A stretch of DNA of 64,000 nt from the IMG/VR virus record IMGVR_UViG_3300029092_000103; one strand, given 5' to 3'. The translations under genes were made by a program, and so were the position numbers. This stretch comes from a virus. Position 1 is the stretch's first letter; every line of letters starts with the position of its first letter. The notes beneath the pieces are model-generated. The model saw only the letters and a program-made list of their open reading frames with translations. It was not told where the DNA came from and made no database searches. Below are positions 10,144-64,000 of the stretch, in pieces.

Positions 10144-10146
10144 CCC

Positions 10147-11904: not shown

Positions 11905-11926
11905 ATCTGAACGAGGAGGAGCTTAC

Positions 11927-13195: not shown

Positions 13196-13961
13196 TGTGA
13201 AATGCGTTCTCATCCATGACAACTTCCAGAACTTCAAGTCCTACAACATCCCCAAGGCGCAGCTGGTGATTGCAGACATTCCGTACAACATCGGTACGGA
13301 TTTCTACGCCAGCCGGCCGGACTGGTATGTAGATGGCGACAACAAAAATGGGGAGAGCAGTAAGGCGAGGAAGGCAGCGTTCAATACCGACTTCACTTTC
13401 AATATCGCAGAGTATTTCCACTTCTGCAACCGCCTGCTGAAGAAAGAACCCGGCACGGGTGAAAAAGATGCGCCGTGCATGATCGTGTTCTGTGCGTTCC
13501 AGCAGATCCCGAAAGTAATCACCGAAGCCGAGAAATACGGCTTCAAGAATTATATCCCTCTGGTGTTCTGCAAGAACTACAGTCCGCAGGTGCTCAAAGC
13601 CAATATGAAGATCGTGGGCGCAACGGAGTACGCGCTGGTGCTGTACCGGGGCAAGCTCCCGAAGTTCCGCAATCTCGGTGAGGACGGTAAGTCCCACATG
13701 ATCTTCAACTGGTTTGACTGGAAGAGAGATGGGAAGGAGTATCCGAAGATCCATCCCTCCCAGAAACCAATCTCCGTGATGAAGCGCCTGATCGAGACTT
13801 TCACTGACCCCGGCGATGTGGTCATTGACCCGTGCGCTGGTAGCGGCTCGACCCTTCGTGCAGCACGAGAGCTGGGGCGCAACAGCTATGGATTTGAAGT
13901 ATCCAGAGATTTTTACCAGAAAGCCAAGGAGCAGATGCTCGGAGAGGAGGATGGCGGATGA
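13188..13961 (+). CDS. DNA methyltransferase, beta-class N6-adenine/N4-cytosine (D-I-P-Y variant)
   Basis: Motif IV IADIPYN precedes motif I VIDPCAGSGSTLRAA. RBS AGGA lies 7 nt upstream of ATG 13188, which overlaps the stop of the previous gene. The ORF track's TTG at 13164 is an alternative start. Confidence 0.8.
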   Translation: MPDVKCVLIHDNFQNFKSYNIPKAQLVIADIPYNIGTDFYASRPDWYVDGDNKNGESSKARKAAFNTDFTFNIAEYFHFCNRLLKKEPGTGEKDAPCMIVFCAFQQIPKVITEAEKYGFKNYIPLVFCKNYSPQVLKANMKIVGATEYALVLYRGKLPKFRNLGEDGKSHMIFNWFDWKRDGKEYPKIHPSQKPISVMKRLIETFTDPGDVVIDPCAGSGSTLRAARELGRNSYGFEVSRDFYQKAKEQMLGEEDGG

Positions 13962-46125: not shown

Positions 46126-46536
46126 ATGCAGAATGTGATCGACAAGATTGAGTGGATGTTCGCAGGTCTGGGTGGTTTCCTGGGCTGGTTCTTCGGTGGC
46201 TTTGATGGCTTCCTTTATGCATTGGTGGTGTTTGTGGTCTGCGACTACTTCACCGGCGTGCTGGCGGCAGCCATCAAGCACGAACTGTCCTCTGCGGTCG
46301 GCTTCCGTGGTATCGCCAAGAAGGTGTGCATCTTTGTGCTGGTTGGCATCGCCAACATCATCGACACGCAGATCCTCCAGAACGGCGCGGCCATCCGTAC
46401 CGCAGTGGTGTTCTTCTATCTGGCAAATGAGGGCTTGAGCTGTTTGGAGAATGCAGCAGTGATCGGTCTGCCGGTGCCGGACAAGCTCAAGGAGATGCTG
46501 GCGCAGCTGAAGGAAGAAAAGAATAAGGACGAGTAA
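46126..46536 (+). CDS. Holin (phage_holin_4_1 / toxin-secretion holin family)
   Basis: Three hydrophobic segments (GLGGFLGWFFGGFDGFLYALVVFVVCDYFTGVLAAAI..., ...IFVLVGIANII..., ...AVVFFYLANE) and a charged C-terminus. Confidence 0.8.
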   Translation: MQNVIDKIEWMFAGLGGFLGWFFGGFDGFLYALVVFVVCDYFTGVLAAAIKHELSSAVGFRGIAKKVCIFVLVGIANIIDTQILQNGAAIRTAVVFFYLANEGLSCLENAAVIGLPVPDKLKEMLAQLKEEKNKDE

Positions 46537-49029: not shown

Positions 49030-51420
49030 ATGAGTGCTGGTACGGATTTCCTTGCAAGTTTGCAGAAAAAGACTGTGAAAAGTACAGTCCAACAGAAACA
49101 GCAGAAGAGAGCGAATGCATCCGCTGTGGATGTCTCGGCTTTACTGGAAGCCGCTCTCAGGCAGAAGAAACCTACGGAAGCTGTGGCAGATGTTCGTCAA
49201 AGTGCGGATGTCGCCACAGCTTCTTTTTTACCACCGACTGACACGCATCAAGGCAAGTCTACTCAACAAAAGCCGAAAAGCGCGTCAGATAAAGCAGTAC
49301 TACAGAAGCAATCAACCTCAAAATCCAAAGACATCGTTGATGCCGGTATCACAGCCCTTATCCAGAAAGCTCTGGATGCCAAAAAGGTTATGGAGCAGCC
49401 GGATATTGCAGAAAGGCTGCAAAGTAGTATGGAGAGCGAGTTCACACAGCTTTTCGCTGCCGAGAATGAACCGCAGGAAAGCAAGTTTGTTTCGACTGCG
49501 ACATTCCGCACCACCAAAAAGAAGATTGGAAGCATCCGTGTGGCGGCTTATATCCGCGTGTCCACGGATATGAGCGACCAGGAGAACTCATACGAAACGC
49601 AGGAAAAGTATTTTAATCAGCTGATTCAAAGCAATCCGGAATGGAATGCAGTCGGTGTGTACTCCGATTACGGTATCTCCGGCACTTCCAAGGAAAAGAG
49701 AACTGGATTCCGCAGGCTGATGCGCCACTGTAAGGATGGCAAAATCGACCGCATTGTGTGCAAGTCCATTTCCCGATTTGCCCGAAATACGGCTGACTTT
49801 ATGACGGCACTGGATACCCTGCACGACTGCGGAGTGACGATTCTGTTCGAGAAAGAAAATCTGGATACGGCAGACCCGACCAGCGACTTCATCCTTACAA
49901 CGCTGGCCGCCATCGCACAGGAAGAAAGCCGCAGCATTTCCGGTAACATCCGACAGGGCAATAAGATGCGCTTTCCGAAAGGGGAAGTTCCCAACAAGAT
50001 TATGTACGGATACCGCTACAACGGGAAGATGGTTACTTCCGAGAGCGGATATGAGTATAAAGACATCGAGGTCGTGGAAGAAGAAGCCAAGGTCGTCCGG
50101 CGCATTTTCAACGAAGTCGTGGAAGGCAAAGCCTATACGGAAATCGCAAGGGGACTGAATCTGGATAAGATTCCGGCTCCGGAGTCAGATATGGCGAGGG
50201 CCAGAAAGCGGAATTCCAAGAAAGGACAGCTGAACAGTGATTTACAGGACGGCTGGACTGGAGGGAATATCACGAGAATCGTCCGTGCCGAGCGATACAT
50301 GGGAGCAGTTCTCATTCAGAAGGTGTTCACACCGGATTATCTGACCCATACGGTTCAGAAAAACAACGGTGAAGTTCCACAGTATTTTGTCCGGAACCAC
50401 CATCCGGCAATCATTGATGAGGATTTGTTTCAAAAAGCGCAGGAAGTCGTAAAGGCAAACAGTGAACTGTATAACAGGACAAGGTTCAAGAAGAAGCCGA
50501 GAGCATTTTCTCAGAGGCTCATCTGTGGGGAGTGTGGACGGTTCTACTCTGTGACAAATGGAAACGGAAGCAATCCCATTTGGAGATGCCCTACGAGCAG
50601 CCAGACGACTGGAAAGTGCATCTGCCATGCAGAGAAAGTATACGAGGAACAGATTGTTCGTGTATTCCGTAAGGCGATTCTGGAACGGTTCCGGCTGACC
50701 ATCAAGCCCATTCACGACAATGTGGCTGTGGCAGATATCATGAGCGGACGTTTCAAAGAGCAGTATGACAACTTCACACCGGAAGCGGATTCCTTTGTGA
50801 GCCAGATGCTTGCAAGACTGGAAAGCATTCAAAAGCTGGACTTCATGGAACGCGACCGTGCTTTTTATAAGAAGCAGATTGCCGCCGCCCACACCAGTGT
50901 GGAAAGCACCAATAAGAAGATTCGGCTTCTGAAAAGTCAGGTAGATGTGATGCATACTCGTCTGGAAGTCCTCGGAGATGAGATGATCAGTCCGGCTTCC
51001 ATTGAGGAAAAGAAAAAACTCATTGAGAAGCTGGAGCAGGATGTTCAAAAAGACACAGACACTGAGCAGAAGCTGACCGAACAGCTCGACTACATGGAAA
51101 ACTACTGGGAAGAGCTGGAGAGCGACTATGAACGCAGGGAAAAGGCAATCGAGTGGATGAAGAACCTCCCGGTGGGTCGGGATGGTACGGTGGCTTTCTT
51201 AAATGAAGTGACCGAAGAACACTGCAAGGCATTTATCCTTTCGATTACCATCTATTCACCGCTGAAGTTCACGGTTCACTGGTTTGATGATACCAAGACC
51301 GAGGTGCAGATGGATTCCAACATTGAAGATTACCGCAATACCGCAAGCTACTATGACGGGCATACGATGCGTGATGGCAGCCAGCGGAAAAAGTATGTAA
51401 GAAGAACCAGAAGAAAATAA
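49030..51420 (+). CDS. Large serine recombinase (integrase), with an N-terminal extension of about 155 aa
   Basis: Resolvase catalytic domain (RVAAYIRVSTDMSDQENSYETQ...ISGTS...SISRFARNT), then recombinase, Zn-ribbon (CGECGRF...WRC) and coiled-coil regions. Confidence 0.85.
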   Translation: MSAGTDFLASLQKKTVKSTVQQKQQKRANASAVDVSALLEAALRQKKPTEAVADVRQSADVATASFLPPTDTHQGKSTQQKPKSASDKAVLQKQSTSKSKDIVDAGITALIQKALDAKKVMEQPDIAERLQSSMESEFTQLFAAENEPQESKFVSTATFRTTKKKIGSIRVAAYIRVSTDMSDQENSYETQEKYFNQLIQSNPEWNAVGVYSDYGISGTSKEKRTGFRRLMRHCKDGKIDRIVCKSISRFARNTADFMTALDTLHDCGVTILFEKENLDTADPTSDFILTTLAAIAQEESRSISGNIRQGNKMRFPKGEVPNKIMYGYRYNGKMVTSESGYEYKDIEVVEEEAKVVRRIFNEVVEGKAYTEIARGLNLDKIPAPESDMARARKRNSKKGQLNSDLQDGWTGGNITRIVRAERYMGAVLIQKVFTPDYLTHTVQKNNGEVPQYFVRNHHPAIIDEDLFQKAQEVVKANSELYNRTRFKKKPRAFSQRLICGECGRFYSVTNGNGSNPIWRCPTSSQTTGKCICHAEKVYEEQIVRVFRKAILERFRLTIKPIHDNVAVADIMSGRFKEQYDNFTPEADSFVSQMLARLESIQKLDFMERDRAFYKKQIAAAHTSVESTNKKIRLLKSQVDVMHTRLEVLGDEMISPASIEEKKKLIEKLEQDVQKDTDTEQKLTEQLDYMENYWEELESDYERREKAIEWMKNLPVGRDGTVAFLNEVTEEHCKAFILSITIYSPLKFTVHWFDDTKTEVQMDSNIEDYRNTASYYDGHTMRDGSQRKKYVRRTRRK

Positions 51421-51455
51421 GAGCCAGTCATAAGGCTGGCAGAAAGGGGCAGATT

Positions 51456-53756
51456 ATGACAAGACAAAAAGTAGATGTGATTCCCGCCAGTGTACGTTCG
51501 GTACAGAACGGCGGTCAGCTCAAAAGCCAGACCAATATCCGAGTGGCAGCCTACTGCCGTGTCTCCACGGGAGATGAGAGCCAGCAGACTTCCTACACGA
51601 CCCAGAAAGCATTCTACAAAGACCTCATCACTCGGAAAACCGGCTGGATTTTTGCTGGCATCTATGCAGATGAAGCAAAGTCTGGTACGAACCGAGAGCA
51701 TCGTGAGGAATTTAACCGCATGATGAAGGACGCGATGGATGGCAAGCTGGACTACATTGTTACGAAGTCCATTTCCCGATTCGCACGAAATACCATCGAC
51801 TCCCTGACCTGTACCCGTGAGCTTCGACAGTTGAAGCCGCCCGTGGGTATCTACTTTGAAAAAGAAAATATCGACACGCTGGATGCCAAAGGCGAACTGA
51901 TTTTGACGATTCTTTCGGCTTTGGCACAGGATGAGAGCCGTTCCATTTCGGACAATATCCGCTGGAGCATCCAGAAGAAGTTTCAGGCTGGTGTTCCGCA
52001 CATCAATCTGAAGCGGATGCTGGGGTATGAGCTGGGGCCTAATAAGCAGTGGGTCATCGTGCCAGAGCAGGCAGAAATCATCCGGTACATTTTCGACCGC
52101 TATGTGAAAGGACAGACGGCGAATAAAATTGCACGGGAACTGAACCAGATGGAGAAGCTCACGGTCAACGGGAAGAAGTGGAGAGCAAGTTCCATTCTGA
52201 TCGTCCTGCGGAATGAAAAGTATGTGGGCGACATCGAGATGCAGAAGACCATCACCAAAGACTTCCTGACCCACCGTTCCAGCATCAACAAGGGCGAGGC
52301 ACCCCGTTACTATGTGAAAAACCATCATGTGGGCATCATCGACCGTGTAACTTGGGACAAGGTGCAGACCATGCTGTTCGAGAAGCCGAGGACGGACATG
52401 ACCAAAGGCCCCGGCAAGAAAAAGGTAAAGAGCATCAAAGGTTCTCCATTTGGAAACCTGCGCTGTGGTGCAATTTTGGAGAACGGACCGGATGCCGGAA
52501 AGCCCTGCGGTGAGGGATTCTTCCGTGTGACCTACACGGGAGTGGCAAACGGTTATACTGATGAGCGGAGCTTACAGGCGACCGGGGAGGATACCGGAGA
52601 GTATCTGGAAAAATACACCTATTCCTATCCAGTCTGGCGGTGTAAGAGAAAAGTTGGAGAGAGGGATGGTGAACCGCCGAAGAATGGTACACCCGACCAG
52701 AAAGCGTATTGCCGGAGCAAACTTGGACGCTTGTCGGATGAGGAACGCAAAGCCGCTGATGAGCGGTGTCCATCGGAAGTCTACCATGAATGTGCGCTGG
52801 AACAGAGCTTCATGGAACTGCTCTACAGCATGAAGCGTGATTATGAACAGCACGGAGACGCTTCCATGATCGTGACCATGTTCGATAACGCCTATGAGCA
52901 GGCTGTCCAACTGGCAAACAACAGCAGTATCTCGGTACAGAGGATGGCGACCGTAGAGAACCAGATTAAAGAGATGGAAGAACGCCTGCAGGATGCTATC
53001 AGCCATCAGGTGGCGGCTCTTCGGGAAGCTGCTCTGGAGCAGAGTGCGGAACTGAACGAAGCCCTTTCCAATGGTGAGATGACCATTGATGATATCGACA
53101 TGGACATCCGAAGCGGACTGACACCGGGTAGTATCGGAGTGAGCTTCTATGGGACGGAAACGGAGGAAGGCTCGGAAGCCCAGATTTATACGGAGCTTGT
53201 GAATGACCTGCAGGAACGCTTGCAAACACTCAGGCAGGAACGGCAGACTATTGAAGAAGAGCAGGGTGTTCTGGCCATCATGAAGAAGAACTTTGAATAC
53301 TTCCTCGCCTGCCTGAAAGAACTGCCGGATGCCAATGCAAGTGGGATGCCCCTGAAAGTCAACGGGCTGGATGTACAGGGAAGCCTGATGCGAGATGCCG
53401 AGGGAAAGCCAATTGATGGAAAGACCGCTGCCGTCCACAATGGAAAAATCAAGTTGACGCCTGAGCGGATTGCGGAAGCCCCCGATATGCTTCATTTTGA
53501 AAAAGGTATCTATTGTGCTTTCATTGAAAGTGGAGTATTGCAGGGAGATGTGGCGACCTACAAGACAAACTTCGGTGTGACACTGACTTCAAAGGGTAAC
53601 CGTAGAACACTCACCAGCTTCATGGGCTATAAGCGGAGTGACCTGAACGGCAATGTGGTCTACATTGATGCCCCTTACAAAGTGTACGGATTCAGCATTC
53701 AGTACCGCCGGTATCTGACAACCGCTGCAAAGCGTGAGAGGAAAGAAGCAGTATAA
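51456..53756 (+). CDS. Large serine recombinase (second copy)
   Basis: RVAAYCRVSTGDESQQTSYTTQ...KSGTN...SISRFARNT, recombinase domain, coiled-coil. Confidence 0.85.
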   Translation: MTRQKVDVIPASVRSVQNGGQLKSQTNIRVAAYCRVSTGDESQQTSYTTQKAFYKDLITRKTGWIFAGIYADEAKSGTNREHREEFNRMMKDAMDGKLDYIVTKSISRFARNTIDSLTCTRELRQLKPPVGIYFEKENIDTLDAKGELILTILSALAQDESRSISDNIRWSIQKKFQAGVPHINLKRMLGYELGPNKQWVIVPEQAEIIRYIFDRYVKGQTANKIARELNQMEKLTVNGKKWRASSILIVLRNEKYVGDIEMQKTITKDFLTHRSSINKGEAPRYYVKNHHVGIIDRVTWDKVQTMLFEKPRTDMTKGPGKKKVKSIKGSPFGNLRCGAILENGPDAGKPCGEGFFRVTYTGVANGYTDERSLQATGEDTGEYLEKYTYSYPVWRCKRKVGERDGEPPKNGTPDQKAYCRSKLGRLSDEERKAADERCPSEVYHECALEQSFMELLYSMKRDYEQHGDASMIVTMFDNAYEQAVQLANNSSISVQRMATVENQIKEMEERLQDAISHQVAALREAALEQSAELNEALSNGEMTIDDIDMDIRSGLTPGSIGVSFYGTETEEGSEAQIYTELVNDLQERLQTLRQERQTIEEEQGVLAIMKKNFEYFLACLKELPDANASGMPLKVNGLDVQGSLMRDAEGKPIDGKTAAVHNGKIKLTPERIAEAPDMLHFEKGIYCAFIESGVLQGDVATYKTNFGVTLTSKGNRRTLTSFMGYKRSDLNGNVVYIDAPYKVYGFSIQYRRYLTTAAKRERKEAV

Positions 53757-53922
53757 GGATGAGATATGACCCTGCTGGGTGTGGCTTTTGTGGCTGCATC
53801 TGGCAGGGCCTTTTTTGTTTGTGGGAGATTTTATTCTTTTTTACATGTGGGGATTGCTATGTGCAGAGATCTGTTATATGTTGTGGATGACGAGGAATAC
53901 ACATAGCAGGAGAGATGACGAT

Positions 53923-54321
53923 ATGAAAAAATTATCGTGGTTATCGGTAGAGGATTATGGAACAACACCATTGGAAGTGATAATCGTGAGTGCAATGAAA
54001 GGGTATCTGGGAGAAATGCCAGAGAGTAAAGCATTGAAAAAGATCGAGGAAGTCTTTGACCCAAAGGTCATCCGGCTGTTCGGTGACGATGGCGCACCAA
54101 TGCCCGTACAAAGCACTGTTGACGGTGCAAAATTCGCTGCATTCATCGACGAGGCAGTAGCTGATGTGGTGAAACGAATGGAATCGGACATGAGCGACAT
54201 CGGGCAGATTGCACTGGAGGCTTTGCGAGATATAGACGGGAAGGTGATCGTTGAAACGATGAGTCCTGAGTTTGTGAGCTTCCTAGGGGATGTGTATAGA
54301 AGTTTGAAATTTGACAAATAA
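53923..54321 (+). CDS. Hypothetical protein (132 aa)
   Basis: ATG 53923 follows GGAGAGA. The ORF track's upstream extension is hydrophobic and of low complexity. Confidence 0.4.
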   Translation: MKKLSWLSVEDYGTTPLEVIIVSAMKGYLGEMPESKALKKIEEVFDPKVIRLFGDDGAPMPVQSTVDGAKFAAFIDEAVADVVKRMESDMSDIGQIALEALRDIDGKVIVETMSPEFVSFLGDVYRSLKFDK

Positions 54322-54418
54322 AAACGGAAAACCCGTTGATATTTTCTGGCGATAGGGGTATAATAAGATTGCAAGAAAATAAAAACGATAAATCCGTTTT
54401 TAGAAGGGAGAATGATAC

Positions 54419-55570
54419 ATGAAAATACTCCGTATCACCGCACAGGGACTTCCACTGTTTAAAGAAAACCTGGATATCTGTTTTTACACACAGCAGCGCG
54501 TAAGTGAGGATGATAAGTGTAGTCTATATAATTTGATTGATAATTATTATCTTCACACTACCAATGCGTTTATTGGAATCAATGCGTCTGGTAAGACCTC
54601 TGTGTTAAAGGTTATCAATTTGGCTCTGAACATTGTAAAGAATGAGCCCATTAATCATGTAGAGGCAAAAACTATTCTTGGTGGAGCAAGAGAAGCTACG
54701 ATTTGCACTTATTTTTATGATAATCGTAAATATGTCTGCTGCCTAGAAACTGTAATTACGGCAAAAAAAGCAAAGGCAGGAGATTATGTGTATTCGATCC
54801 TGTCCGAAAGACTGTGGGAAAAATCAATTGTCAGTATCAAGTCGAAGAAGTATTTGACGGATTTCACCGGAATGGAGCCTGTGGCATCGCGTAATAGCGA
54901 TGAAGCATATCTTTCAGATGATGTCAGCTTTATCATTGCACATAATAAAAAAGCAAATGATACGGTGGAAGTGTTTAGCTTACTTTCTTACACGAATGTG
55001 AATGTGCTTCCCTTTACTGAGGATATTCCATTGGAAGTGATTGCTTTTCTGGACCCAACCATTGAAAAATTGTGCTTCGAGCAAACAGAGGGAAAGACAT
55101 TTATCCATTTGAAATTCCGAAATGAAGATGAAATTGTTTTAAACAATGCAGTGGACCTTGAGCAGTATCTGTCTTCCGGTACAATCAAAGGTATTATTAC
55201 ATTCTCAATGGTGAAGGAGGTACTTCAATCTGGTGGATACTTGCTGGTAGATGAAATTGAAAACCATTTTAATAAGGAAATTGTAACAACACTGATTCGT
55301 TTCTTTATGGATGGCCGACTTAACAAAAAAGGTGGAACACTGATTTTTACAACACATTATCCAGAGTTGTTGGATGAATATGACCGCAATGATGGAATTT
55401 GTATCGTAAGAAACCGTAATGGCATCACAGTAGAAAACCTGAGCTATATATTGAAACGTAATGATATTAAAAAAAGCGATGCATATCAGAGTGGATTTCT
55501 GGAAGGAACGACCCCTGCGTATGAGGCCTATATGCGCTTGAAGAAGAACCTGGCTGCTTCAATTCATTAA
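54419..55570 (+). CDS. AAA_21/ABC-like ATPase (AbiLi-like, OLD-family ATPase-like)
   Basis: Walker A GINASGKTSV. Walker B/D-loop LLVDEIENHFN. H-loop TTHYPELL. The sequence is AT-rich relative to the prophage. Confidence 0.75.
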   Translation: MKILRITAQGLPLFKENLDICFYTQQRVSEDDKCSLYNLIDNYYLHTTNAFIGINASGKTSVLKVINLALNIVKNEPINHVEAKTILGGAREATICTYFYDNRKYVCCLETVITAKKAKAGDYVYSILSERLWEKSIVSIKSKKYLTDFTGMEPVASRNSDEAYLSDDVSFIIAHNKKANDTVEVFSLLSYTNVNVLPFTEDIPLEVIAFLDPTIEKLCFEQTEGKTFIHLKFRNEDEIVLNNAVDLEQYLSSGTIKGIITFSMVKEVLQSGGYLLVDEIENHFNKEIVTTLIRFFMDGRLNKKGGTLIFTTHYPELLDEYDRNDGICIVRNRNGITVENLSYILKRNDIKKSDAYQSGFLEGTTPAYEAYMRLKKNLAASIH

Positions 55571-55582
55571 GGAGGCGGCAGA

Positions 55583-56104
55583 ATGGAATTGGCAAAATAT
55601 AAGGCGTGTATCTGCGAGGGTTCGGCGGAGGCTGCGATTATCGATATACTGGTCGATAATGACCTTTTGATCTTTACCTGAGAAGAAATGCTCAATGAAG
55701 AAGTTATCCGATGCAGGAACGCAAAGAAATTTGAGGAACGTTACTTACGTAAGGAATTTGCAGATCAGGTTTCTGTCATACGGATTCTAGATTCGCGCAG
55801 GGAAGAATTTCGACTCAGCAAGGCATACGAAAATAAGATTGATGTTATTAATGTCATTACAGCTCCCGAAATAGAAATGTTGATTATCCATAATGAGGGA
55901 GAGTATGAACATTTTAAGCGTTCTGGGAAGAAGCCGAGTGAGTTTTGTAAAGTGAATCTCCGTATGCATAATGTAAAGTCGTATGAATTCGTGAAAGACT
56001 ATTTTAGTGATCCACAAACACTGGTGGGGGCGATTAAAGAATATCGTAGAACCGCAAATATCCCAAATGGAGAATACTGCTTGTCTGACTTGCTAAAGCA
56101 ATGA
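55583..56104 (+). pseudogene. RloB/DUF4276-like (Toprim-like, AbiLii-like) gene interrupted by an in-frame TGA at 55679-55681
   Basis: N-terminal ...KACICEGSAEAAIID matches the RloB/DUF4276 CEGxxE signature. The 32-aa ORF (55583-55681) and the 138-aa ORF (55688-56104) are in the same frame, separated only by TGA. GGAGG lies 7 nt before ATG 55583. Confidence 0.55.
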
Positions 56105-56325
56105 GAAACGGCAGTCATGTACAAGGCCACAGGAGATATAAGAAAAGAAGCGCATAATTGAAAATAATTGGCCCACTGGCGCACTGTGTAGAATCCTACA
56201 TGGTACGTTGGTGGGTTTCTTTTTTTGCCTTACCCGCATGAACCACAGACAGCACCTCGGTGTGATCCGAAGTGCAGCTGTGGCTTATGCGGGCTTTTTT
56301 GTTATATGGTCAACGAGTTACAAAG

Positions 56326-56667
56326 TCAGATGCCTAACCCGTATAAAATCGCTTTCATCTCCTTTACCATCCGGGTGAGGATTTCCTGTTCAGTTGCATT
56401 GCAGTCCAAAAGCAGTCGGTGAATCTCCGTATCAGCTGTAGAGGTGGAATGCGTCAGGCTGTCTACGAGAAGGTCGTCTGCCGATACATTCAAGATATTT
56501 GCAATCTGCACGAGAGATTCCAAACTGGGCTTACTCTTTCCGAGTTCAATGTTGCTGATGTGCTTATAGCCAACCTCACACCTGAAAGCGAGTTCTTCCT
56601 GTGATAAATTTCCTTTGTTCCTAAAATTGGCGATGCGCTGTCCAAGCGCAGTATAGTCAATTGCCAT
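56326..56667 (-). CDS. XRE-family helix-turn-helix (HTH) transcriptional regulator (putative repressor)
   Basis: HTH LSQEELAFRCEVGYKHISNIELGKSKPSLESLVQIANILNV. AAGGAGG RBS before ATG 56667 on the minus strand. Confidence 0.75.
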   Translation of the reverse strand: MAIDYTALGQRIANFRNKGNLSQEELAFRCEVGYKHISNIELGKSKPSLESLVQIANILNVSADDLLVDSLTHSTSTADTEIHRLLLDCNATEQEILTRMVKEMKAILYGLGI

Positions 56668-56802
56668 ACAGTCCTCCTTATGGTTTACCCGCATAAGGCT
56701 GATATGATTATCTCGCAGGAGAAAATGTATGGCAACAGAGTGAGGACACTCTAAGACCGCAGAGCCACTTACCCCTATCAGTAGTGTGGTCTTAGCCTGT
56801 TA

Positions 56803-56852
56803 TTCCACCTGATAGGTGGAATTTTCGACTTCATTCCATCTGACAGGTGGAA
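56803..56852. promoter_or_regulatory. Two 19-bp palindromic operator-like sites (TTCCACCTGATAGGTGGAA and TTCCATCTGACAGGTGGAA) in the divergent region between the XRE gene and the AAA_25 gene
   Basis: Read from the sequence at 56803-56821 and 56834-56852. Confidence 0.55.
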
Positions 56853-56918
56853 GTCAAAGCACCGCACATATTCTATAATATAAATGTAGTAAAAGACTGC
56901 AATTGGAAAGGAAAGACA

Positions 56919-57896
56919 ATGGCAAGTAAAGAGCAAGTGGGGATTCTTACATTATATAGTGATGTACAGGCGACTTCTGTTCGCTGGCTGTGGTATCCGT
57001 TCATTGCAGTTGGAAAGATCACATTGCTTCAAGGCGACCCCGGTGACGGAAAGTCCACAATGATGATGAATCTGATTGCCGGTTTGTCCAATGGTGGGAG
57101 CCTCCCGGATGGTAAGCCGGTCGGGATGCCACAGAGGGTTATTTATCAGTGTTCGGAAGATGGCGTTTCGGATACCATCAAGCCTCGGCTGGAAAAGTGC
57201 GGAGCCGATTGCAGGAATGTGGCGTTCATAAATGAAGAAACCTACAGTGGGCTGACGCTGGATGATGAACGTATCCGGCAGGCTATTATAGAATTCCGGC
57301 CGAGGCTGGTAGTCATCGACCCGATACAGGCGTATCTCGGAAGTGACTCTGACCTCCAGATTGCAGGCAGAGCCAGAAAGTTGATGCAGCGTCTTGGAAT
57401 GTGGGCATCCGTATATGATTGTGCCATTGTGCTGATCGGTCACCTCAACAAGAAAGAGGGAACAAAAGGTCTGTATCGGAGTCTCGGCAGTATCGATGTG
57501 GTGGCGGCTGCCCGGAGTGTCCTGCAGGTGGAGAGAGATCCAGAGAACGCCGATATCCGCATCGTCCGGCAGATAAAGAACAGTCTGGCTCCATCCGATG
57601 GTGAAATCCGGTTTTCGATAACAGCAGAGCAGGGCTTCAAATGGCTGGAATGTGAAGTTGCACCAAATCCGGCAGCAGAGCCGGAAGCACCAAACTTTGA
57701 ATCGAAAGCCGAGAAAGCGGCCTATCTGATTAAGAAACTGCTTTCAGAGGGTGATATGAGATCCAGAGAAATCTACATAAGGCTGAGCGATGAAGGTATC
57801 AGCCGCAGGACAGCAGAAAACATAAAAAAGGAACTCGGCATCCGAAGTTACCGGAGGATGCGTCAGTGGTATTGGAGCATCCAGCCGGAAGATTGA
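56919..57896 (+). CDS. AAA_25 / RecA-DnaB-like P-loop ATPase (RepA-like)
   Basis: Walker A LLQGDPGDGKST, Walker B LVVIDPIQAY, and GHLNK. Confidence 0.7.
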   Translation: MASKEQVGILTLYSDVQATSVRWLWYPFIAVGKITLLQGDPGDGKSTMMMNLIAGLSNGGSLPDGKPVGMPQRVIYQCSEDGVSDTIKPRLEKCGADCRNVAFINEETYSGLTLDDERIRQAIIEFRPRLVVIDPIQAYLGSDSDLQIAGRARKLMQRLGMWASVYDCAIVLIGHLNKKEGTKGLYRSLGSIDVVAAARSVLQVERDPENADIRIVRQIKNSLAPSDGEIRFSITAEQGFKWLECEVAPNPAAEPEAPNFESKAEKAAYLIKKLLSEGDMRSREIYIRLSDEGISRRTAENIKKELGIRSYRRMRQWYWSIQPED

Positions 57897-57906
57897 GAGG
57901 AAACAA

Positions 57907-59763
57907 ATGACAAAAAGTGAACGGCAAGAGCGCAAACAAAAAATTAGAGAACGTTATAAAGGCACGGATACATCCAGAATTAAAGTAATTCCTGCGAAAT
58001 CTTCAGAGAACTTGGAAACAAGCAACACCATTCGTCGTGTTGCTGCTTATGTACGTGTTTCAACTGATAATGATGAACAGACTTCATCCTATGAGCTTCA
58101 GAAGAATTATTATACTAAGTATATCAAGGCGCAACCAGGTTGGGAGTTCGCTGGAATTTATGCTGACGAGGGCATCAGTGGTACTTCTCTTGAGCACCGA
58201 AAGGGAATGCAGAAGCTAATTGAAGATTGTAAAGCTGGGAAAATTGACCTTATACTTACAAAATCGATTTCTCGATTCGCTAGAAACATTGTAGATTGCC
58301 TTTCAATAGTTGGTATGTTGAAGGATCTTGAGCCACCCGTAGGTGTAAAGTTTGAAACAGATAATATTTCAACGTTAGACATCAATGGACGGATGCTCTT
58401 GTCCATTGTGGCTTCTTTGGCAGAGGAGGAATCTCATAATAAATCTCTTCTGATGAATTGGTCTCTTGAACAACGTTATAAAGACGGAATGTTTCTTATT
58501 CCAGAACTTTTGGGGTACGATCTGGATGAAAATGGTAACCTTGTGGTTAATCCAGAAGAAGCACAGACTGTAAAGGTGATTTATTATTTGTATTTGAACG
58601 GATTCTCGCTTACGGAAATTGCTGAACTGTTGACCGATTATAGAAGGAAAACAAAATTAGGTAATACAGAATGGAATCCAAGTTCTTTGGCTGCTGTGAT
58701 CGCCAATGAAAGACATTGTGGAGATCTTTTAGCAAGAAAAACTTACACACCCAATTATTTGACTCATAAATCGAAGAAAATCAAAAATAACGAACGTGCA
58801 CAATATTGGAATTTCGACCATCATGAGGCAATTGTATCCAGAGAGGTCTATAATGCAGCAAATCATCTGCGAGCATCCCGGAGCTATGCAAAGCGAAAAC
58901 GTCCTCTGCCAGTTTTGAGTGTGGTCGATGACGGCATTCTTCGTGGATATGTACCTTTCGACAAAGACTGGACAGGATTTTCAGCAGAGGAATATCGAGA
59001 GGCTTCTGAAAGTGTAATGCTGGAGAAAGAAACTGACACGGTAGAAGTCATGAATCGTTTGGATTTGACCGGCTATGAAGTAGTCCGTGCACAGTATTTC
59101 TCGACTTTGCGGAATCCGGCCATGACGATTTCAAATGGAAGGTTGCGGTTTAATACAGCTTGTCTGAAAAAATTTGAAAATGTTGAGTATGTAGAACTGC
59201 TTCTGAACTCGGTTGACCGCTGTGTTGCTATCCGCCCCTGCGAAAAGAGCAATCCGAATGCAATTCATTGGGGGCGATTGAAAGAGGGACGGTGGTGTGC
59301 CAGTACACTTGTTTGCCGTGGTCTAGCAAAAGCACTTTTTGACATCATGGAATGGGAAGATGGCTTAAAATACCGTTTTCGTGGACAGTTTGTGGAGCAG
59401 GGCGATAATAAGTTGATGCTCTTTGAACTGGACGAACCGGAAATGGTCAAAGTCGAAGAAATCGTTCTTCCGCCCAAGGGAGAAGATGCTGAAGGCGAAA
59501 CAGTTAAGCAGACGATTTACATTCTTCCGCCGGAATGGGCAGGAACCTTTGGACAACCAATCACAAGCATTGCGCAGATTAGCCTCTTACAACAGAAACA
59601 TTATGCCGGAAACTGGGATGTACTTAGACCAGCAGCAGAAATAGAAGAAATGAATACATTTACGGTAGAAAATTTAAATGCGTTGCTTCACGAAGCGGAA
59701 GAAATAATGGAAGGATGGACTGATACAGATGGAGGAGAACAAAACGAGTGTTCCGATGAATGA
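57907..59763 (+). CDS. Large serine recombinase (third copy, AT-richer)
   Basis: RRVAAYVRVSTDNDEQTSSYELQ...ISGTS...SISRFARNI, recombinase domain, and a distinctive C-terminal domain (RLRFNTACLKKF...VAIRPC). Confidence 0.85.
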   Translation: MTKSERQERKQKIRERYKGTDTSRIKVIPAKSSENLETSNTIRRVAAYVRVSTDNDEQTSSYELQKNYYTKYIKAQPGWEFAGIYADEGISGTSLEHRKGMQKLIEDCKAGKIDLILTKSISRFARNIVDCLSIVGMLKDLEPPVGVKFETDNISTLDINGRMLLSIVASLAEEESHNKSLLMNWSLEQRYKDGMFLIPELLGYDLDENGNLVVNPEEAQTVKVIYYLYLNGFSLTEIAELLTDYRRKTKLGNTEWNPSSLAAVIANERHCGDLLARKTYTPNYLTHKSKKIKNNERAQYWNFDHHEAIVSREVYNAANHLRASRSYAKRKRPLPVLSVVDDGILRGYVPFDKDWTGFSAEEYREASESVMLEKETDTVEVMNRLDLTGYEVVRAQYFSTLRNPAMTISNGRLRFNTACLKKFENVEYVELLLNSVDRCVAIRPCEKSNPNAIHWGRLKEGRWCASTLVCRGLAKALFDIMEWEDGLKYRFRGQFVEQGDNKLMLFELDEPEMVKVEEIVLPPKGEDAEGETVKQTIYILPPEWAGTFGQPITSIAQISLLQQKHYAGNWDVLRPAAEIEEMNTFTVENLNALLHEAEEIMEGWTDTDGGEQNECSDE

Positions 59764-60421
59764 ACAGTCAGTAGAAAATGATAGAGATGCACGGGCTGAA
59801 GAACTGGAAAGTACATTTTCGTATGACGGATACCAAGTCGTGCGTAAGGAACTTTTTGCACATCTGCGTGACCCGGCCATCGTGATCCGCAAGGACAGCA
59901 TCACGTTCAACACGGCCTGTATCACTGGGCTGGAGGATGTGGTCTATGTACACGTCATGTTCAACAGCGACTTGAAGCGCATTGTCGTGCGCGGCTGCGA
60001 TGAAAATGAAAAAGATGCGCTACGCTGGTGCATCGCCAAGGAGGACAAGCGCAAAAGTCGGAAGATGTCCTGCAAGCCTTTTTCAGAACTGGTCTATAAG
60101 GAAATGGGATGGGATAGGGAATGTCGGTACAAGATGCTGGGCTACAGAATCACCTTTGAGGGTGAAACTTTGTACGTTTTTGATCTGCTCGTGCCAGAGG
60201 TTTTTTATGAACCCCAGAAGCGCAAGAAGGGTGCTGCTCCTCAGACACAGGATGTAAGACCTGCGAATGCGAGAAAGGGATTTTACCCAGATGATATTGC
60301 AGGTACTTTCGGTGTGCCAGTGGAAGAACATCTAAAAGAATCCGAAATCAAGCAGATGGACGGATATGTGTCGATGGGCATCTTGACAGGAAAAAATGAA
60401 CCCGACACCGGAAATAAATAA
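59729..60421 (+). CDS. Hypothetical protein; a stand-alone paralog of the third recombinase's C-terminal domain
   Basis: YQVVRKELFAHLRDPAIVIRKDSITFNTACITGLEDVVYVHVMFNSDLKRIVVRGC aligns with the recombinase's EVVRAQYFSTLRNPAMTISNGRLRFNTACLKKFENVEYVELLLNSVDRCVAIRPC. Confidence 0.5.
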   Translation: MEENKTSVPMNEQSVENDRDARAEELESTFSYDGYQVVRKELFAHLRDPAIVIRKDSITFNTACITGLEDVVYVHVMFNSDLKRIVVRGCDENEKDALRWCIAKEDKRKSRKMSCKPFSELVYKEMGWDRECRYKMLGYRITFEGETLYVFDLLVPEVFYEPQKRKKGAAPQTQDVRPANARKGFYPDDIAGTFGVPVEEHLKESEIKQMDGYVSMGILTGKNEPDTGNK

Positions 60422-60477
60422 AAACACTCAACAGAAACCAAGGGAGAAGTGCGCCCATTTTTAAGGAGGGGAGAGAA

Positions 60478-60954
60478 GTGAATGAAAGAACATGGAATCA
60501 GCGGATGCTGGGCCTGACCTTTAATGCTGTAGATGGAAGAATCACTATCTTCCGCAGTACATTGGAGGAACTCGGCTGGCCGACCAACTATCGGTTTCTG
60601 TATAATCGGAAAGCAAAACAGGTAGCAGTCCAGAACTGCGCGGCCGAAGATGCAGGTTCTCATAAGACACCGAAGCTGAATGCGAGCAACAGCTGCGAAA
60701 TCAAGTGTATGGCGTTTGTGAGGATGATCTATCGGGATATGCGGTGGAACCAGGACAATACATATCGTCTGGAGGGGAAAAGTATCCCCGGACAGCAGCT
60801 TGTGAGCTTCGATTTATCTTCCCCGTTTTTAGTGGAAAACGGAATAGCTCTGGACGAAAATCTAAGCCCAACAAAGCCCCTGTGTGGCGAAGAAATGTCC
60901 TCTGCGGAAAGTTCCTCGGCCTTGCCGATAAAACGCGACAGTGGGGCAGTGTAA
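60478..60954 (+). CDS. Hypothetical protein; second stand-alone paralog of the same domain (GTG start)
   Basis: RITIFRSTLEELGWPTNYRFLYNRKAKQVAVQNC... has the same pattern. AAGGAGGGG lies 6 nt before GTG 60478. Confidence 0.45.
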   Translation: MNERTWNQRMLGLTFNAVDGRITIFRSTLEELGWPTNYRFLYNRKAKQVAVQNCAAEDAGSHKTPKLNASNSCEIKCMAFVRMIYRDMRWNQDNTYRLEGKSIPGQQLVSFDLSSPFLVENGIALDENLSPTKPLCGEEMSSAESSSALPIKRDSGAV

Positions 60955-61113
60955 GGGGCGTGTGGCGAAGCAGGCCAAAAAAAGCCCACCGGGTCACGGT
61001 CCAGGATGCTTGCAAGGCAGCAAGGCGGAAGGTGACCGGGTGGGCAGGAGACATTTTGGATGAGTCTACTCAACAAGTGAATAAAATCACTTTTGTATCT
61101 GCGAACGACAAAA

Positions 61114-61420
61114 ATAAGTGATTAAGCTCACTTATAGCTATTGAAAATAAGTGATTCTGTTCACTTAGAAAAAGTGAGCTTTTTACGCCATCCTAGATTT
61201 TAGATGAAGTCGTCATCCAGCAAAAATAAGTGAATATAATCACTTAAAAACATCAAAAATCCAAATAAGTGAGCTTAATCACTTATCCGAAGAAAAGTGA
61301 ACATTTTACTCCCTGACCGGGTTTGAGGTCGTCGATTAGTCCATAATCGACGGCTTCTTTTTTATGCTCAAAAAAGGGGGTATGTAGCTACATAACGCAA
61401 TAAGTGAGCTTTATACGCCA
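61114..61420. repeat. Iteron cluster: four 22-bp palindromes ATAAGTGA-N6-TCACTTAT/A plus three AAGTGAGCTTT(T/A)TACGCCA-type half-site variants
   Basis: Palindromes at 61114-61135, 61147-61168, 61226-61247 and 61265-61286. Half-site variants at 61169-61190, 61291-61310 and 61398-61420. Also the TGTAGCTACA palindrome at 61383-61392. Confidence 0.7.
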
Positions 61421-61574
61421 CTGTCGAGCAACTTCGCCGCGGTATGTTTAGTCCAGAAATGTCTACTTAACAAAATCAGTTGAGGTCTGATGGTCTATGG
61501 TGGAGCGTAATACACATGCGATAATAGGCGTTTTCGCATAAATATACGTTGCATTTTACTGTGAAAATCATGTT

Positions 61575-61811
61575 TTGTGCAGTAGGTTGTTAATACTGAT
61601 AAGAGAGTTAAAGAAAAAATTGAAAATTCCTCATTTATATCCCAATGGATCTCTATGTCTATACTATCCGGATTATAACGAATGGAATGCAGATGACTTA
61701 TGGGCTGATTCTATAATTCCATGGACCTGCCTTTGGCTGTATTTTTTTGAATTATGGATAGCAACTGGGGAGTGGTTGGGTGGAGGAATTCATCCAGGAA
61801 ATAACAATTGA
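61575..61811 (+). CDS. Hypothetical small protein (78 aa), AT-rich
   Basis: ORF only. Confidence 0.3.
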   Translation: MCSRLLILIRELKKKLKIPHLYPNGSLCLYYPDYNEWNADDLWADSIIPWTCLWLYFFELWIATGEWLGGGIHPGNNN

Positions 61812-61959
61812 ATGTTGCAACGAATCTAGGCAAACAAAAATACCCGAACAAAAGAAAGCAAGCCGTGTGGACAAACTGAACTCCAGGAGTTCACACGGTA
61901 ATTTTTGAAGGTTGCTATATAGTTTGTAACTGAAATAAAAGTAATGGAGCGTAAGAAAA

Positions 61960-62343
61960 ATGAATTTATCAAAAATACATCATATTGCAATTATTGTATC
62001 TGACTACGAAGCCGCAAAGAATTTTTATGTGAACAAGCTGGGATTCTCTGTCATCAGAGAAAACTACCGCCCGGAGCGTAAGGACTGGAAGCTGGATCTT
62101 CGTATTAATGAGCACACAGAGCTGGAGATTTTCGCTGAGGAAAATCCGCCGAAGCGTGTGAACTGCCCGGAAGCCTGTGGGCTGCGTCACCTTGCGTTCT
62201 GCGTTGATAGCGTGGAACAGACAGTGAATGAGCTGGCAGAGGTCGGGATTGAATGTGAGCCGATCCGGGTTGACGATTACACCGGCAAGAAGATGACTTT
62301 CTTCCATGACCCGGACGGACTGCCGCTGGAATTGCACGAATAA
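61960..62343 (+). CDS. VOC-family (glyoxalase/bleomycin-resistance/dioxygenase) protein
   Basis: IHHIAIIVSDYEAAKNFYVNKLGF...HLAFCVDS...FFHDPDGLPLEL is the VOC fold signature. Confidence 0.8.
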   Translation: MNLSKIHHIAIIVSDYEAAKNFYVNKLGFSVIRENYRPERKDWKLDLRINEHTELEIFAEENPPKRVNCPEACGLRHLAFCVDSVEQTVNELAEVGIECEPIRVDDYTGKKMTFFHDPDGLPLELHE

Positions 62344-62345
62344 TT

Positions 62346-63140
62346 ATGGGAGAGAAAAGAGCGTATAAAGCCAGAAAGCCTGGCGGTGGCAGGAAAAAGC
62401 TGAAGCCAGAATATGATGCAGAGAAAAATCTGAAAGAGCAGATGAATGCTGCTGTATCCCTCTATAAAAACAACTCTCTCCAAGCCATTGCAAATGAACT
62501 GACTCTCAACCCTATCAAGGTTCGCAAGCTGCTCATCACAGCTGGTGTGTATGAGTCGGATATAGCGGAGATGGTACGGCGTACTTTTTATAGGTATAGA
62601 AAAATACAGAACTATAAAGAAGCAATCCTCTCCACCGCATCAGAACTCAAGCTGTCCAAAGCCTCGGTCACTTCGTATCTGCCGTATGAAAAGGGCGTGT
62701 ATTTCCCAAGCACAACCTCAACAGAGAAGATCAGTGTGGGTGCAGAGCGGCAGAGGAGATACCGGGCAACGAAGAAGCTGCGAGCAGCGCCGACAGAGGA
62801 ACATCTGTGGGAAGTGGTTCTGGCATATCAAAAAGTGCGTTTTAAAACCTATTCCGGCTTGCCATTCTCTTATGAAATACGAAAAGGCAGAAGCGGCGAA
62901 TACACAAAAGAGCTCTGGATCGACAGGCGAGAGAGCAGCAAGAGTCTGGCGTGGAGCTCGGTGTTGCTGGCGCTGGGCAATGTAAAAGAGGTCGGAGCAG
63001 TGGTTGACCGTCCGAAAGCGTTGGGTGATATTCGTGGAGTGACCTACATCTACGGGATGTTCTACCGGTTTGGGCTGATTGATGTGCCGGACGCGGTAAA
63101 GGAGAAGATGAATAAGCGCGGGTGTATTTCCAAGGGCTGA
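62346..63140 (+). CDS. Hypothetical protein (264 aa) with a basic N-terminus
   Basis: ORF immediately after the VOC gene. Confidence 0.5.
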   Translation: MGEKRAYKARKPGGGRKKLKPEYDAEKNLKEQMNAAVSLYKNNSLQAIANELTLNPIKVRKLLITAGVYESDIAEMVRRTFYRYRKIQNYKEAILSTASELKLSKASVTSYLPYEKGVYFPSTTSTEKISVGAERQRRYRATKKLRAAPTEEHLWEVVLAYQKVRFKTYSGLPFSYEIRKGRSGEYTKELWIDRRESSKSLAWSSVLLALGNVKEVGAVVDRPKALGDIRGVTYIYGMFYRFGLIDVPDAVKEKMNKRGCISKG

Positions 63141-63757
63141 TATACGGACACTTATGTGTGCAACTAACGGTACGTAGAGTAACAAGGTTTCATATCGAAC
63201 AAAAATACACTGTTTCCTACACCATCTCCTAAAATCATGTCCGGTGAAATTTCAGCAAAAGAGGCATCAGAGGAGCGCATCTGGGCAGAGCAAACGCCCC
63301 CGGCGGCAGCTCCGGGCCCCGGACGCTCCGAACTATGTGTTCCATGAAAATAGACTTTCAAATATGAGAAAATGCAGACCGGATGTGAAATTGACGGAAA
63401 CCTTGCAAATGACGCTGAAACGTGATATAATCGTGGTACGAACAAGCCGGTTTTGGTACGACAACGGTATGCTGTAGTACTGTAACTGTTGTTTCGAAAT
63501 TATGAACGACTACAAAAAATGTGTGAAAATTTAGCGTAGCTACGACGACACCTATCAGGTTCAGGTCGTGTCCTGGTACGACAACGAGAACTCCTACACC
63601 TCTCAGATGGTCCGTACCATTAAGTACTTCGCCGAGAACTGCTAGTCACAGCTCTACGCTCAAAAGTGCTTGAGATGCCGTGCTGAGTAACAGCCTGTGT
63701 TGACCTTTCTGGTACGAACATGCTGTGATAGGTGCGACAACAGGAACTTGAGTTCTA

Positions 63758-63802
63758 CACCCTTCCTTTTGCGGGTCTCCGTGAGAGGAAGGGTGTTTTG
63801 TT
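63758..63802 (+). terminator. Hairpin terminator (CACCCTTCC...GGAAGGGTG plus TTTTGTT)
   Basis: Read from the sequence. Confidence 0.5.
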
Positions 63803-63824
63803 ATGTGAGCTCTATCATAAACCA

Positions 63825-63865
63825 CGCGCCCCTTCCGATGTGGTCTGCCACAGGGAAGGGGCGCG
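63825..63865. terminator. 12-bp-stem hairpin (CGCGCCCCTTCC...GGAAGGGGCGCG) between convergent genes; bidirectional terminator
   Basis: Read from the sequence. Followed by TTTGAATG. Confidence 0.5.
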
Positions 63866-63882
63866 TTTGAATGCGGGATATT

Positions 63883-64000
63883 TTATTTTTTGCTATTTCC
63901 CACCCGCATCTTGAAATCCTCATACCCGAACTTTACAAGCTCGCGGCAGGTGCCGGCGGCGTCCATCGCCCAGATGGGCGGGAGGGGCATGCCGTTGAAG
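63883..64000 (-). CDS. 3' end of a minus-strand gene, probably host (...PIWAMDAAGTCRELVKFGYEDFKMRVGNSKK*)
   Basis: Open minus-strand frame runs to the window edge. Stop TAA (reverse complement) at 63883-63885. Confidence 0.4.
   Translation of the reverse strand, partial: FNGMPLPPIWAMDAAGTCRELVKFGYEDFKMRVGNSKK

Follow-up and report, generated by a model that had tools for sequence, protein, structure and literature searches.

Large serine integrases are prized as genome-engineering tools, and to our knowledge almost everything understood about them comes from phages with one enzyme and one site; arrays of several paralogous large serine recombinases (LSRs) have been noted in ICEs (integrative conjugative elements) and, as far as we know, never dissected. 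The single-LSR phages (phiC31, Bxb1, A118, TP901-1 and SPbeta with its SprA) encode one integrase, adjoining the phage attachment site attP, and in SCCmec, which is not a phage and inserts at the 3' end of rlmH, the two neighbouring LSRs CcrA and CcrB are thought to work together at a single attachment site within a host gene; we know of no third recombinase and no XRE switch in the ccr complex. Here we analyse a stretch of 64,000 nucleotides from IMG/VR virus record IMGVR_UViG_3300029092_000103 (the window), which contains the right-hand part of one temperate siphovirus-like Faecalibacterium prophage of roughly 74 kb, and in it a feature at positions 49030-59763 that carries three LSR genes, here called LSR1, LSR2 and LSR3. 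We find that LSR3 belongs, with a repressor and an ATPase, to a discrete block that can be gained, lost and reused, and that this block is a separable module and not a demonstrable free-riding satellite; LSR1 and LSR2 are, by comparison among relatives, the likely phage integrase.

With the single-LSR phages this locus shares an imperfect-palindrome attP of about 40-50 bp, a crossover at a central dinucleotide, integration in a host gene, and the Resolvase + Recombinase architecture, present in all three enzymes here (the Zn ribbon being matched in LSR1 only), and it differs from them in its three paralogues with intact catalytic motifs and in the position of attP, 7.7 kb downstream of the LSR1/LSR2 pair and 1.7 kb from LSR3. 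It resembles CcrA/CcrB with the upstream Cch helicase module in layout, an ATPase or helicase gene adjoining the recombinase genes. The closest known analogue is the serine-integrase triplet of streptococcal ICEs, whose members group in phylogenies according to their place in the triplet, be it external, middle or internal (Ambroset et al. 2016, PMC4701971). As in those triplets, several paralogous LSRs point the same way and lie close to an end of the element, integration is site-specific in a protein-coding gene with an identity of just 2-8 bp, and other coding sequences sometimes stand between the recombinases and the target; the three paralogues cluster by position here too, as described for the triplets. 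In contrast to the ICEs, the carrier here is a phage, LSR3 lies 4.1 kb from the pair, with a defence cassette, the divergently transcribed repressor and the AAA_25 gene in between, so the three genes are not adjacent, and the third recombinase can be absent (L223) or alone elsewhere (L001), with two to four upstream paralogues (L-numbers, L001-L272, denote comparison loci or contigs; IMG/VR was scanned twice, once via LSR3 and once via LSR2). By analogy, the locus would be a phage-borne, split variant of the ICE triplet with an embedded repressor-ATPase unit and a mapped pair of attachment sites.

A first-pass annotation of the window had placed three LSRs in this feature, the first two in tandem, and had read the third, together with an XRE repressor, an AAA_25 ATPase and a nearby repeat cluster, as a nested or satellite-like element. 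The genes concerned are the following.

49030..51420, plus strand: LSR1, 796 amino acids (aa) with a 170-aa N-terminal extension; position-1 paralogue, grouping with the other LSR1 sequences in the tree; Pfam matches to Resolvase, Recombinase and Zn_ribbon_recom
51456..53756, plus strand: LSR2, 766 aa; Pfam Resolvase and Recombinase
56326..56694, minus strand: XRE/HTH_3 repressor, divergent from the AAA_25-LSR3 operon; Pfam HTH_3 E = 2e-14; PHROGs category of transcriptional repressors
56803..56852, no strand: two predicted 19-bp palindromic operators, TTCCACCTGATAGGTGGAA at 56803-56821 and TTCCATCTGACAGGTGGAA at 56834-56852
56919..57896, plus strand: AAA_25 (RecA/DnaB-fold) ATPase, 325 aa; Pfam AAA_25 E = 2e-22
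57907..59763, plus strand: LSR3, 618 aa; position-3 paralogue; Pfam Resolvase and Recombinase
59729-60421, plus strand: open reading frame (ORF) ORF230, conserved alongside LSR3
60478-60954, plus strand: ORF158, which co-varies with LSR1 and LSR2

As an inventory, the first-pass annotation was borne out. All three enzymes are LSRs by their catalytic and PF07508 domains: Resolvase (PF00239) and Recombinase (PF07508) are matched in each with E-values of 1e-17 to 1e-33, and the catalytic motifs RVAAYxRVS, SGT and SISRFARN align in 3/3. LSR1 and LSR2 are indeed in tandem, 35 bp apart, and are 41% identical across the catalytic and recombinase domains. The Zn ribbon PF13408 was matched in LSR1 only, LSR2 and LSR3 having long C-terminal parts with no Pfam match; in the distant relative L238 the orthologues of both LSR1 and LSR2 match PF13408. 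The repressor with its two palindromes and the AAA_25 ATPase are likewise in place, the palindromes lying immediately upstream of a TATAAT box and of the AAA_25 start (the true start being probably 56919). LSR3 is also AT-richer, as had been noted, with 41.6% GC against 48.8% in LSR1 and 51.3% in LSR2; since its operon partner AAA_25 has 50.8% GC, the drop is specific to the LSR3 gene and not module-wide. The LSR3 allele of the window is about 80% identical to all other orthologues (72-92% per 100-aa segment), which are close among themselves, and this equidistance, together with an AT content above that of its operon neighbours, suggests that the allele was replaced through recombination. In PHROGs the matches of AAA_25 are helicase parts of primase-helicases. 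ORF230 and ORF158 gave no Pfam, PHROGs or PADLOC match, and an AlphaFold run on the single ORF230 sequence (pLDDT 35) was unusable; a strong terminator stands 3' of ORF158.

The order LSR1-LSR2-cargo-XRE (minus strand)-AAA_25-LSR3-ORF230-ORF158, closed 3' of ORF158 by a set of palindromes, was found in about 50 related phage contigs, at at least 25 IMG/VR loci in the LSR3 scan and at about 27 in the LSR2 scan; in nearly every contig examined that carries the exact LSR2 or LSR3 protein, the arrangement agrees down to the spacing. It extends to distant relatives: the components of L220 are 37-75% identical to those of the window, and in L238, which was confirmed by Pfam and has tail and amidase genes around, three tandem LSRs upstream and no cargo, every component is 30-42% identical. 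Co-occurrence of the three recombinases in the same order reaches 30-42% identity (L238, L246). In a neighbour-joining tree of 32 LSR cores, LSR1, LSR2 and LSR3 form clades by position, L220, L238 and L246 included, and their mutual identity is 35-41% versus 23-27% to the unrelated tandem LSRs of L061. The three recombinases thus occur together in the same order in dozens of related phages; co-occurrence of this kind is what the first-pass annotation itself had said would speak against a separate element, and the position-specific clades of the tree count against it as well.

The genes of the locus do not diverge together. Relatives fall into four classes, with these identities to the window.

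Class A: LSR1 89%, LSR2 93%, ORF158 84%
Class B: LSR1 75%, LSR2 87%, ORF158 82%
Class C: LSR1 63%, LSR2 69%, ORF158 63%
Class D: LSR1 44%, LSR2 44%, ORF158 52%

LSR1, LSR2 and ORF158 thus co-vary, and the divergence class of LSR2 also tracks the P arm of attP; AAA_25 (84-93%), LSR3 (about 82%) and ORF230 (81-87%) stay flat over classes A-D. The LSR3 block itself, comprising XRE, AAA_25, LSR3, ORF230 and ORF158, extends from 56171, near which nucleotide homology to all relatives begins sharply, to about 61000. L220 and L223 belong to the same LSR1/2 class (52-55% identity to the window), and of the two only L220 carries the block; in L001 it adjoins ImmR/ImmA and a Y-family polymerase, without LSR1/2; and in L058-L063 an LSR3-like block (AAA_25 88%, LSR3 79%, ORF230 80%) stands behind four unrelated tandem LSRs, in a context like that of an integrative mobilisable element (IME), with a relaxase fragment and a further LSR nearby. 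Since its presence varies inside a single LSR1/2 class and it occurs in elements that lack LSR1/2, the block is a separable module in the cargo slot between the integrase genes and attP. The array of four tandem unrelated LSRs (about 509-563 aa), part of an IME-like element with MobC, relaxase and DUF6017, was seen at L061:1851-8205, where it precedes the LSR3-like block, and at L173:14923-21361, where it abuts the phage left arm. Apparent introns in LSR3 homologues, suggested by tblastn spans of about 2.4 kb, were artefacts, the ORFs being intact at 610 aa.

The attachment site was reconstructed from junctions in relatives. It lies in the window beside a second conserved feature.

61075..61420, no strand: palindrome and repeat array, five palindromes and three direct repeats adjoining attP
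61437..61487, no strand: attP, intact here; an imperfect palindrome, CGGTATGTTTAGTCCAGAAA followed by TGTCTACTTAACAAAATCAG, with crossover in the AA at 61458-61459

The conserved block stops at 61459-61474 in many loci. In L007, L011, L068, L034 and L014 an identical P arm runs into the 3' part of ugd, the UDP-glucose dehydrogenase gene of the host, forming attR with four ugd alleles and a reading frame that runs on as ...YDSHTQHFDTS; in L167 the P' arm follows the 5' part of ugd (...ADFVVIAAPTN) and leads on to the phage left arm, which makes attL. The intact attB of phage-free ugd reads ...CCCACCAA up to the crossover and CTACGACAGCC after it (attB sequence GCGGCCCCCACCAACTACGACAGCCGG), the crossover falling in an AA dinucleotide at the codons for PTN and YD, and in the phage-free strain L271 an attL scar persists together with about 110 bp of DNA from the P' side. 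attP, attB, attL and attR were thus rebuilt from independent contigs, and they have the short palindrome with central dinucleotide crossover of LSR sites. In the ugd lysogens the whole phage, all three recombinases and the LSR3 block included, lies between attL and attR, which counts against the reading as a nested element. The P' half-site, a 13-mer GTCTACT(C/T)AACAA, occurs three times in the same orientation, at 49257, 61064 and 61461 (about 0.08 matches expected by chance in the window, by our own estimate), and the copy at 49257, which is conserved in relatives, falls in the coding region of the LSR1 N-terminal extension.

The array next to attP has five 18-bp palindromes AAGTGA-N6-TCACTT, at 61075, 61116, 61149, 61228 and 61267, and three 22-nt direct repeats, at 61169, 61292 and 61399; with up to one mismatch per half-site, 5/6 matches of the palindrome pattern in the 64-kb window fall within 210 bp. 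Class-C relatives have the same array, and L220 and L223 have an analogous one of another motif (ATGATAATATCAT), adjoining the P arm. The repeats at 61114-61420, earlier taken for an iteron cluster and the replication origin of a nested element, are real, but they are mainly palindromes and belong to the attP region rather than to a replication origin, since such an array accompanies the P arm in L223, which is without the block. The palindromes are probably binding sites for an accessory protein. Position 61474 was also considered as the prophage end and rejected, the flank in L005, L013, L037 and L040 being a shared 290-bp cassette with phage DNA beyond. In L037 (position 13835, junction CATCATAAG to TCCTG) this cassette, with inverted att half-site copies at its bounds, runs into the interior of a host NTP_transferase gene, of which L165 and L074 have intact copies; this is a junction of a second type.

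Which recombinase uses this site is best approached through the variants. Class C has its own P arm, GAGGTGGTGGAA continued across the crossover by TGTCTACC..., and in L033 this arm is joined to a different host sequence while LSR3 is still about 82% identical. L220 and L223 share another P arm, and L223, with LSR1/2 orthologues and no LSR3 block, is joined to ugd at the codons NLYPSR. Since P arm, palindrome array and target follow LSR1/2, and since a phage with LSR1/2 only sits in ugd, LSR1 and LSR2 are likely to be the phage integrase. They would act as a pair on attP 61437-61487, with ugd as the natural target, and the interval between them and attP would serve as a cargo slot for a swappable defence cassette (AbiL-like, with a broken partner) and for the LSR3 block. 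The latter would be a self-regulated recombinase module, with a divergent repressor and an operon headed by the two palindromic operators, acquired long ago and since inherited with the phage, still losable and found in other mobile elements too; LSR3 might supply a second integration specificity, cooperate with LSR1/2 or represent a domesticated integrative element. We put the chances of this combined model, an LSR1/2 integrase with LSR3 as a separable module, at about even. The phage family supplies a mapped attP and attB (ugd), natural variants of P arm and target, and variants with and without the third-recombinase block, so that the question of why a phage should keep several integrases becomes directly testable.

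How this particular copy was inserted is a further part of the problem, because attP is unrecombined here. Phage-type DNA runs on beyond 61.5 kb, and the prophage does not, as had been assumed, end at the recombinases. The right end of the window contains the following.

61460..63140, plus strand: P'-side DNA that repeats the phage left-arm module, this second copy deriving in part from the island
61575-61811, plus strand: CBASS E2 gene fragment, found in the defence-gene scan
61960-62343, plus strand: glyoxalase gene, 87-94% identical to the phage left-arm copies
62346-63140, plus strand: ORF264, its 3' half island-type
63141..63896, no strand: right-hand terminus of the genomic island integrated at the gap 3' end, with an outward promoter, GTACGAnAAC repeats and an orphan gap fragment; homology to the phage-free L256 and L272
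63538-63642: orphan gap 3' fragment, a GAPDH C-terminus (E = 2.7e-12)

The P'-side phage sequence right of attP is common to class C and the L271 scar. The 3' half of ORF264 and positions 63141-63456 are 85-96% identical to L272, which is a phage-free deletion derivative of the island at the gap 3' end, and the 61.5-63.1 kb stretch is decaying, having been hit by different deletions in L002, L008-L010, L012 and L016. In F. prausnitzii the gap-pgk interval is an island slot, which includes large islands with polysaccharide genes and ugd. In every contig that carries the exact ORF264 the LSR3 module stands to its left, and several of these contigs break about 74.3 kb upstream of ORF264, the predicted position of the left glyoxalase-ORF261 copy; the prophage is thus probably bracketed, as far as the comparison allows, by direct glyoxalase-ORF26x copies about 74 kb apart inside the island. 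An unrecombined attP in a prophage inside the gap-3' island implies that this copy arrived by another route. Homologous recombination via the glyoxalase-ORF26x module could account for it, and so could a further site-specific reaction or the formation of a tandem array with subsequent deletion. A second attP at 63110 was considered and dropped, since at this point the conserved ORF26x coding sequence simply stops and gives way to three different tails, and since the ORF264 3' half is island-type on both sides; the orphan gap fragment was likewise rejected as a phage attB, since it belongs to the tyrosine-integrase island and is present in phage-free strains. A metagenome scan by DNA pattern for the right flank gave no match, and in reference genomes, where the nspC neighbourhood was searched for an empty site, synteny differs.

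Several observations weigh against LSR1/2 as the enzyme of attP. Nearness to the site alone would favour LSR3, and the assignment of attP to LSR1/2 is purely comparative. The P' arm (TGTCTACYYWAAC) is conserved over classes whose LSR1/2 are more than 50% different, which is a poor fit to LSR1/2 alone reading both half-sites, and the extra P'-like half-sites at 61064 and inside LSR1 (49257) count against it too. L223 could be a defective relic; L212, also without the block, proved ambiguous as a clean block-less example, its site resembling the attL of a neighbouring prophage; and the left junction of the window prophage is unseen, so that its mode of insertion is read indirectly. Positional orthology to 30-40% identity would fit equally well a cooperative tripartite system, in which the three LSRs act together on one attP, as hetero-oligomers or on different half-sites or reaction directions, the mode of action presumed for the streptococcal ICE triplets, with XRE and AAA_25 as embedded regulators. 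Such a system would account for the position-specific clades with their order kept to 30-42% identity, for LSR1-3 being closer to one another (35-41%) than to other LSRs of the same genomes (23-27%), and for a conserved P' arm going with a conserved LSR3 and a variable P arm with variable LSR1/2, and it has a parallel in the triplets clustering by position of PMC4701971. We nevertheless regard it as unlikely, because L223 is in ugd with LSR1/2 orthologues alone, because L001 has the LSR3 block but no LSR1/2 and in L058-L063 the block follows unrelated LSRs, and because the number of upstream LSRs is not fixed, being 2, 3 (L238, L218) or 4. There is a slim chance, in our estimate, of a division of labour in which the conserved LSR3 reads the conserved P' half-site and the fast-diverging LSR1 and LSR2 read the P arm and the host half-sites; if it were true, a swap of LSR1/2 would retarget a conserved recombination core to other positions or genes, a natural modular reprogramming of large serine integrases.

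LSR3 could instead confer a second, alternative integration specificity on the whole phage, which would explain the intact attP of the copy in the gap-3' island. This is compatible with attP being intact in all window-type contigs while a phage with identical LSR2 and LSR3 is in ugd in L007, L011 and L014, and with a prophage apparently bracketed by glyoxalase-ORF26x copies; it is decidedly unlikely in our judgement, given that no second attP/attB pair was identified, that the break at 63110 marks only where the conserved ORF26x coding region ends, the ORF264 3' half being of island type throughout, that homologous recombination, or a tandem array and deletion, suffices without a second site, and that the left junction is unseen. 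The least probable of the readings, and one that we hold to be highly doubtful, is that the block is an active nested satellite or integrative element, which excises, replicates via AAA_25 and moves alone with the phage as helper or vehicle. Four deletion variants bear on it.

56290-61569: deleted in L018
54614-60417: deleted in L019
LSR2 C-terminus to 56880: deleted in L004
61630-63879: deleted in L012

Their ends are all different and have microhomology of 2-6 bp, so they look like illegitimate deletions and not site-specific excision, and among them we found no precise excision or empty-site variant of the LSR3 block. Direct repeats of att type flanking the block, as predicted for a separate element, were looked for and none was found; the block holds none of the satellite genes for packaging hijack (small terminase, capsid-size redirection, pac/cos), nor genes for mobilisation; the supposed origin repeats go with attP even where the block is missing; and the exact LSR3 and LSR2 proteins occur together with identical spacing in nearly all contigs examined. 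On the other side stand the self-contained layout of repressor, ATPase and recombinase, the sharp left edge at about 56171, the presence or absence of the unit in one LSR1/2 class (L220 vs L223), its occurrence in non-phage contexts, and the outlying, AT-richer LSR3 allele. What stood of the nested element is therefore its discreteness and separability (L220 vs L223; L001; L058-L063); the piggy-backing, the limits and the origin did not.

Those limits had been put at 53.8-61.9 kb, and they do not hold because 54.15-56.17 kb is an AbiL-like cargo cassette, with other genes there in relatives.

53923..54321, plus strand: conserved short ORF of 132 aa, predicted in every related contig; 42-58% identity in relatives
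54419..56104, plus strand: variable defence-cargo slot, AbiLi-like ATPase and partner ORF
54419-55570, plus strand: AbiLi-like ATPase (AAA_21), PADLOC AbiLi E = 5.9e-30
55583-56104, plus strand: partner ORF of the AbiLi-like ATPase, broken by an in-frame TGA at 55679-55681

The AAA_21 ATPase is thus an AbiLi-like defence gene of the variable slot and does not belong to the LSR3 unit. The slot (54153-56170) differs in content among lineages, relatives having a 268-aa ORF or other genes, and two terminator hairpins stand between LSR2 and LSR3. The partner ORF is intact, with 173 aa, in L005, L007, L013 and L014, and its intact version (L005) matched no PADLOC, Pfam or PHROGs model. These differences show the interval between the integrase genes and attP to be a slot for defence systems, AbiL-like here and other cassettes in relatives. 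In L008 (2100-2300, corresponding to window position ~53975, inside the 132-aa ORF) a GC-rich element carrying genes for ParB_N and DUF7768 takes the place of the leftward sequence, and the junction shows att-like similarity (ACACCgTTGcA vs ACACCaTTGgA); probably a further mobile element has entered the prophage here. A further defence-cargo hotspot lies just beyond attP, where the window has its truncated CBASS E2 gene (61575-61811), L037 (14994-16518) has a complete Thoeris ThsA/ThsB pair, and other cassettes are found elsewhere.

The surroundings of the prophage are themselves mobile. The order of nesting runs from the gap-3' tyrosine-integrase island to the polysaccharide genes including ugd, then to the prophage, and finally to the module in its cargo slot. 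Tandem and nested 'matryoshka' elements of Faecalibacterium, comprising ICEs and IMEs of four genomes and one prophage in tandem, are described in PMC12084326; alike is the stacking of several integrative elements at one locus, with scars or remnants here in L271 and L272, and text searches of that study found no description of the multi-LSR phage module. The prophage thus sits in nested mobile elements of a keystone gut commensal, and its family is abundant in human gut metagenomes: in an exact-protein index of human gut assemblies the DNA polymerase was found in 2,257 collection blocks, LSR3 in 560 and LSR2 in 456. The ends of tyrosine-integrase islands at the gap 3' end are marked by GTACGA(C/A)AAC repeats and an outward TTGCAA-17-TATAAT promoter, seen at window 63405-63740 and at L256:3850-3960 and 9900-10000. 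Orphan GAPDH C-terminal fragments of 39-74 aa form 765 clusters in gut assemblies.

Host and phage are recognisable from the remaining genes. The right flank is a polyamine operon, with the nspC stop codon at 63895-63897, and a decarboxylase farther along it is 94-98% identical to Faecalibacterium counterparts. Described F. prausnitzii phage genera are listed in PMC5883640; deposited Faecalibacterium phages showed no DNA similarity to the window, just two or three short fragments being matched, and an Rfam scan of window 53-64 kb gave no match. Nearly all window genes are on the plus strand, and the prophage extends beyond the left edge.

Early functions and replication: DNA polymerase A (300-2240), antirepressor, VapE-type primase, SNF2 helicase, S-adenosylmethionine synthetase, three DNA methylases
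Structure and lysis: structural genes; tail protein that includes a GDSL lipase domain; holin (46126-46536); two lysins; the composite lysogeny and integration region follows the lysis genes

The phage left arm, reconstructed from L075 and L165-L172, consists of glyoxalase, ORF261, DUF6809 and DUF6219, followed by an AAA_13 tRNase and HTH_17 that are encoded on the other strand, and continues via further genes and sigma70_r4 to the DNA polymerase; polysaccharide-locus genes precede it. Within window 8664-16354 a full S-adenosylmethionine synthetase (9055-10143) adjoins a PemK-like ORF, 3' of which stand the three DNA methyltransferases (ParB-N6/N4, N6/N4 and a 798-aa C5 enzyme). Outside the window, the left-arm AAA_13 protein (L075:9957-12317, also in L165) has 786 aa, is annotated by its sources as a wobble-nucleotide-excising tRNase (RloC-like) and has the HTH_17 gene adjoining.

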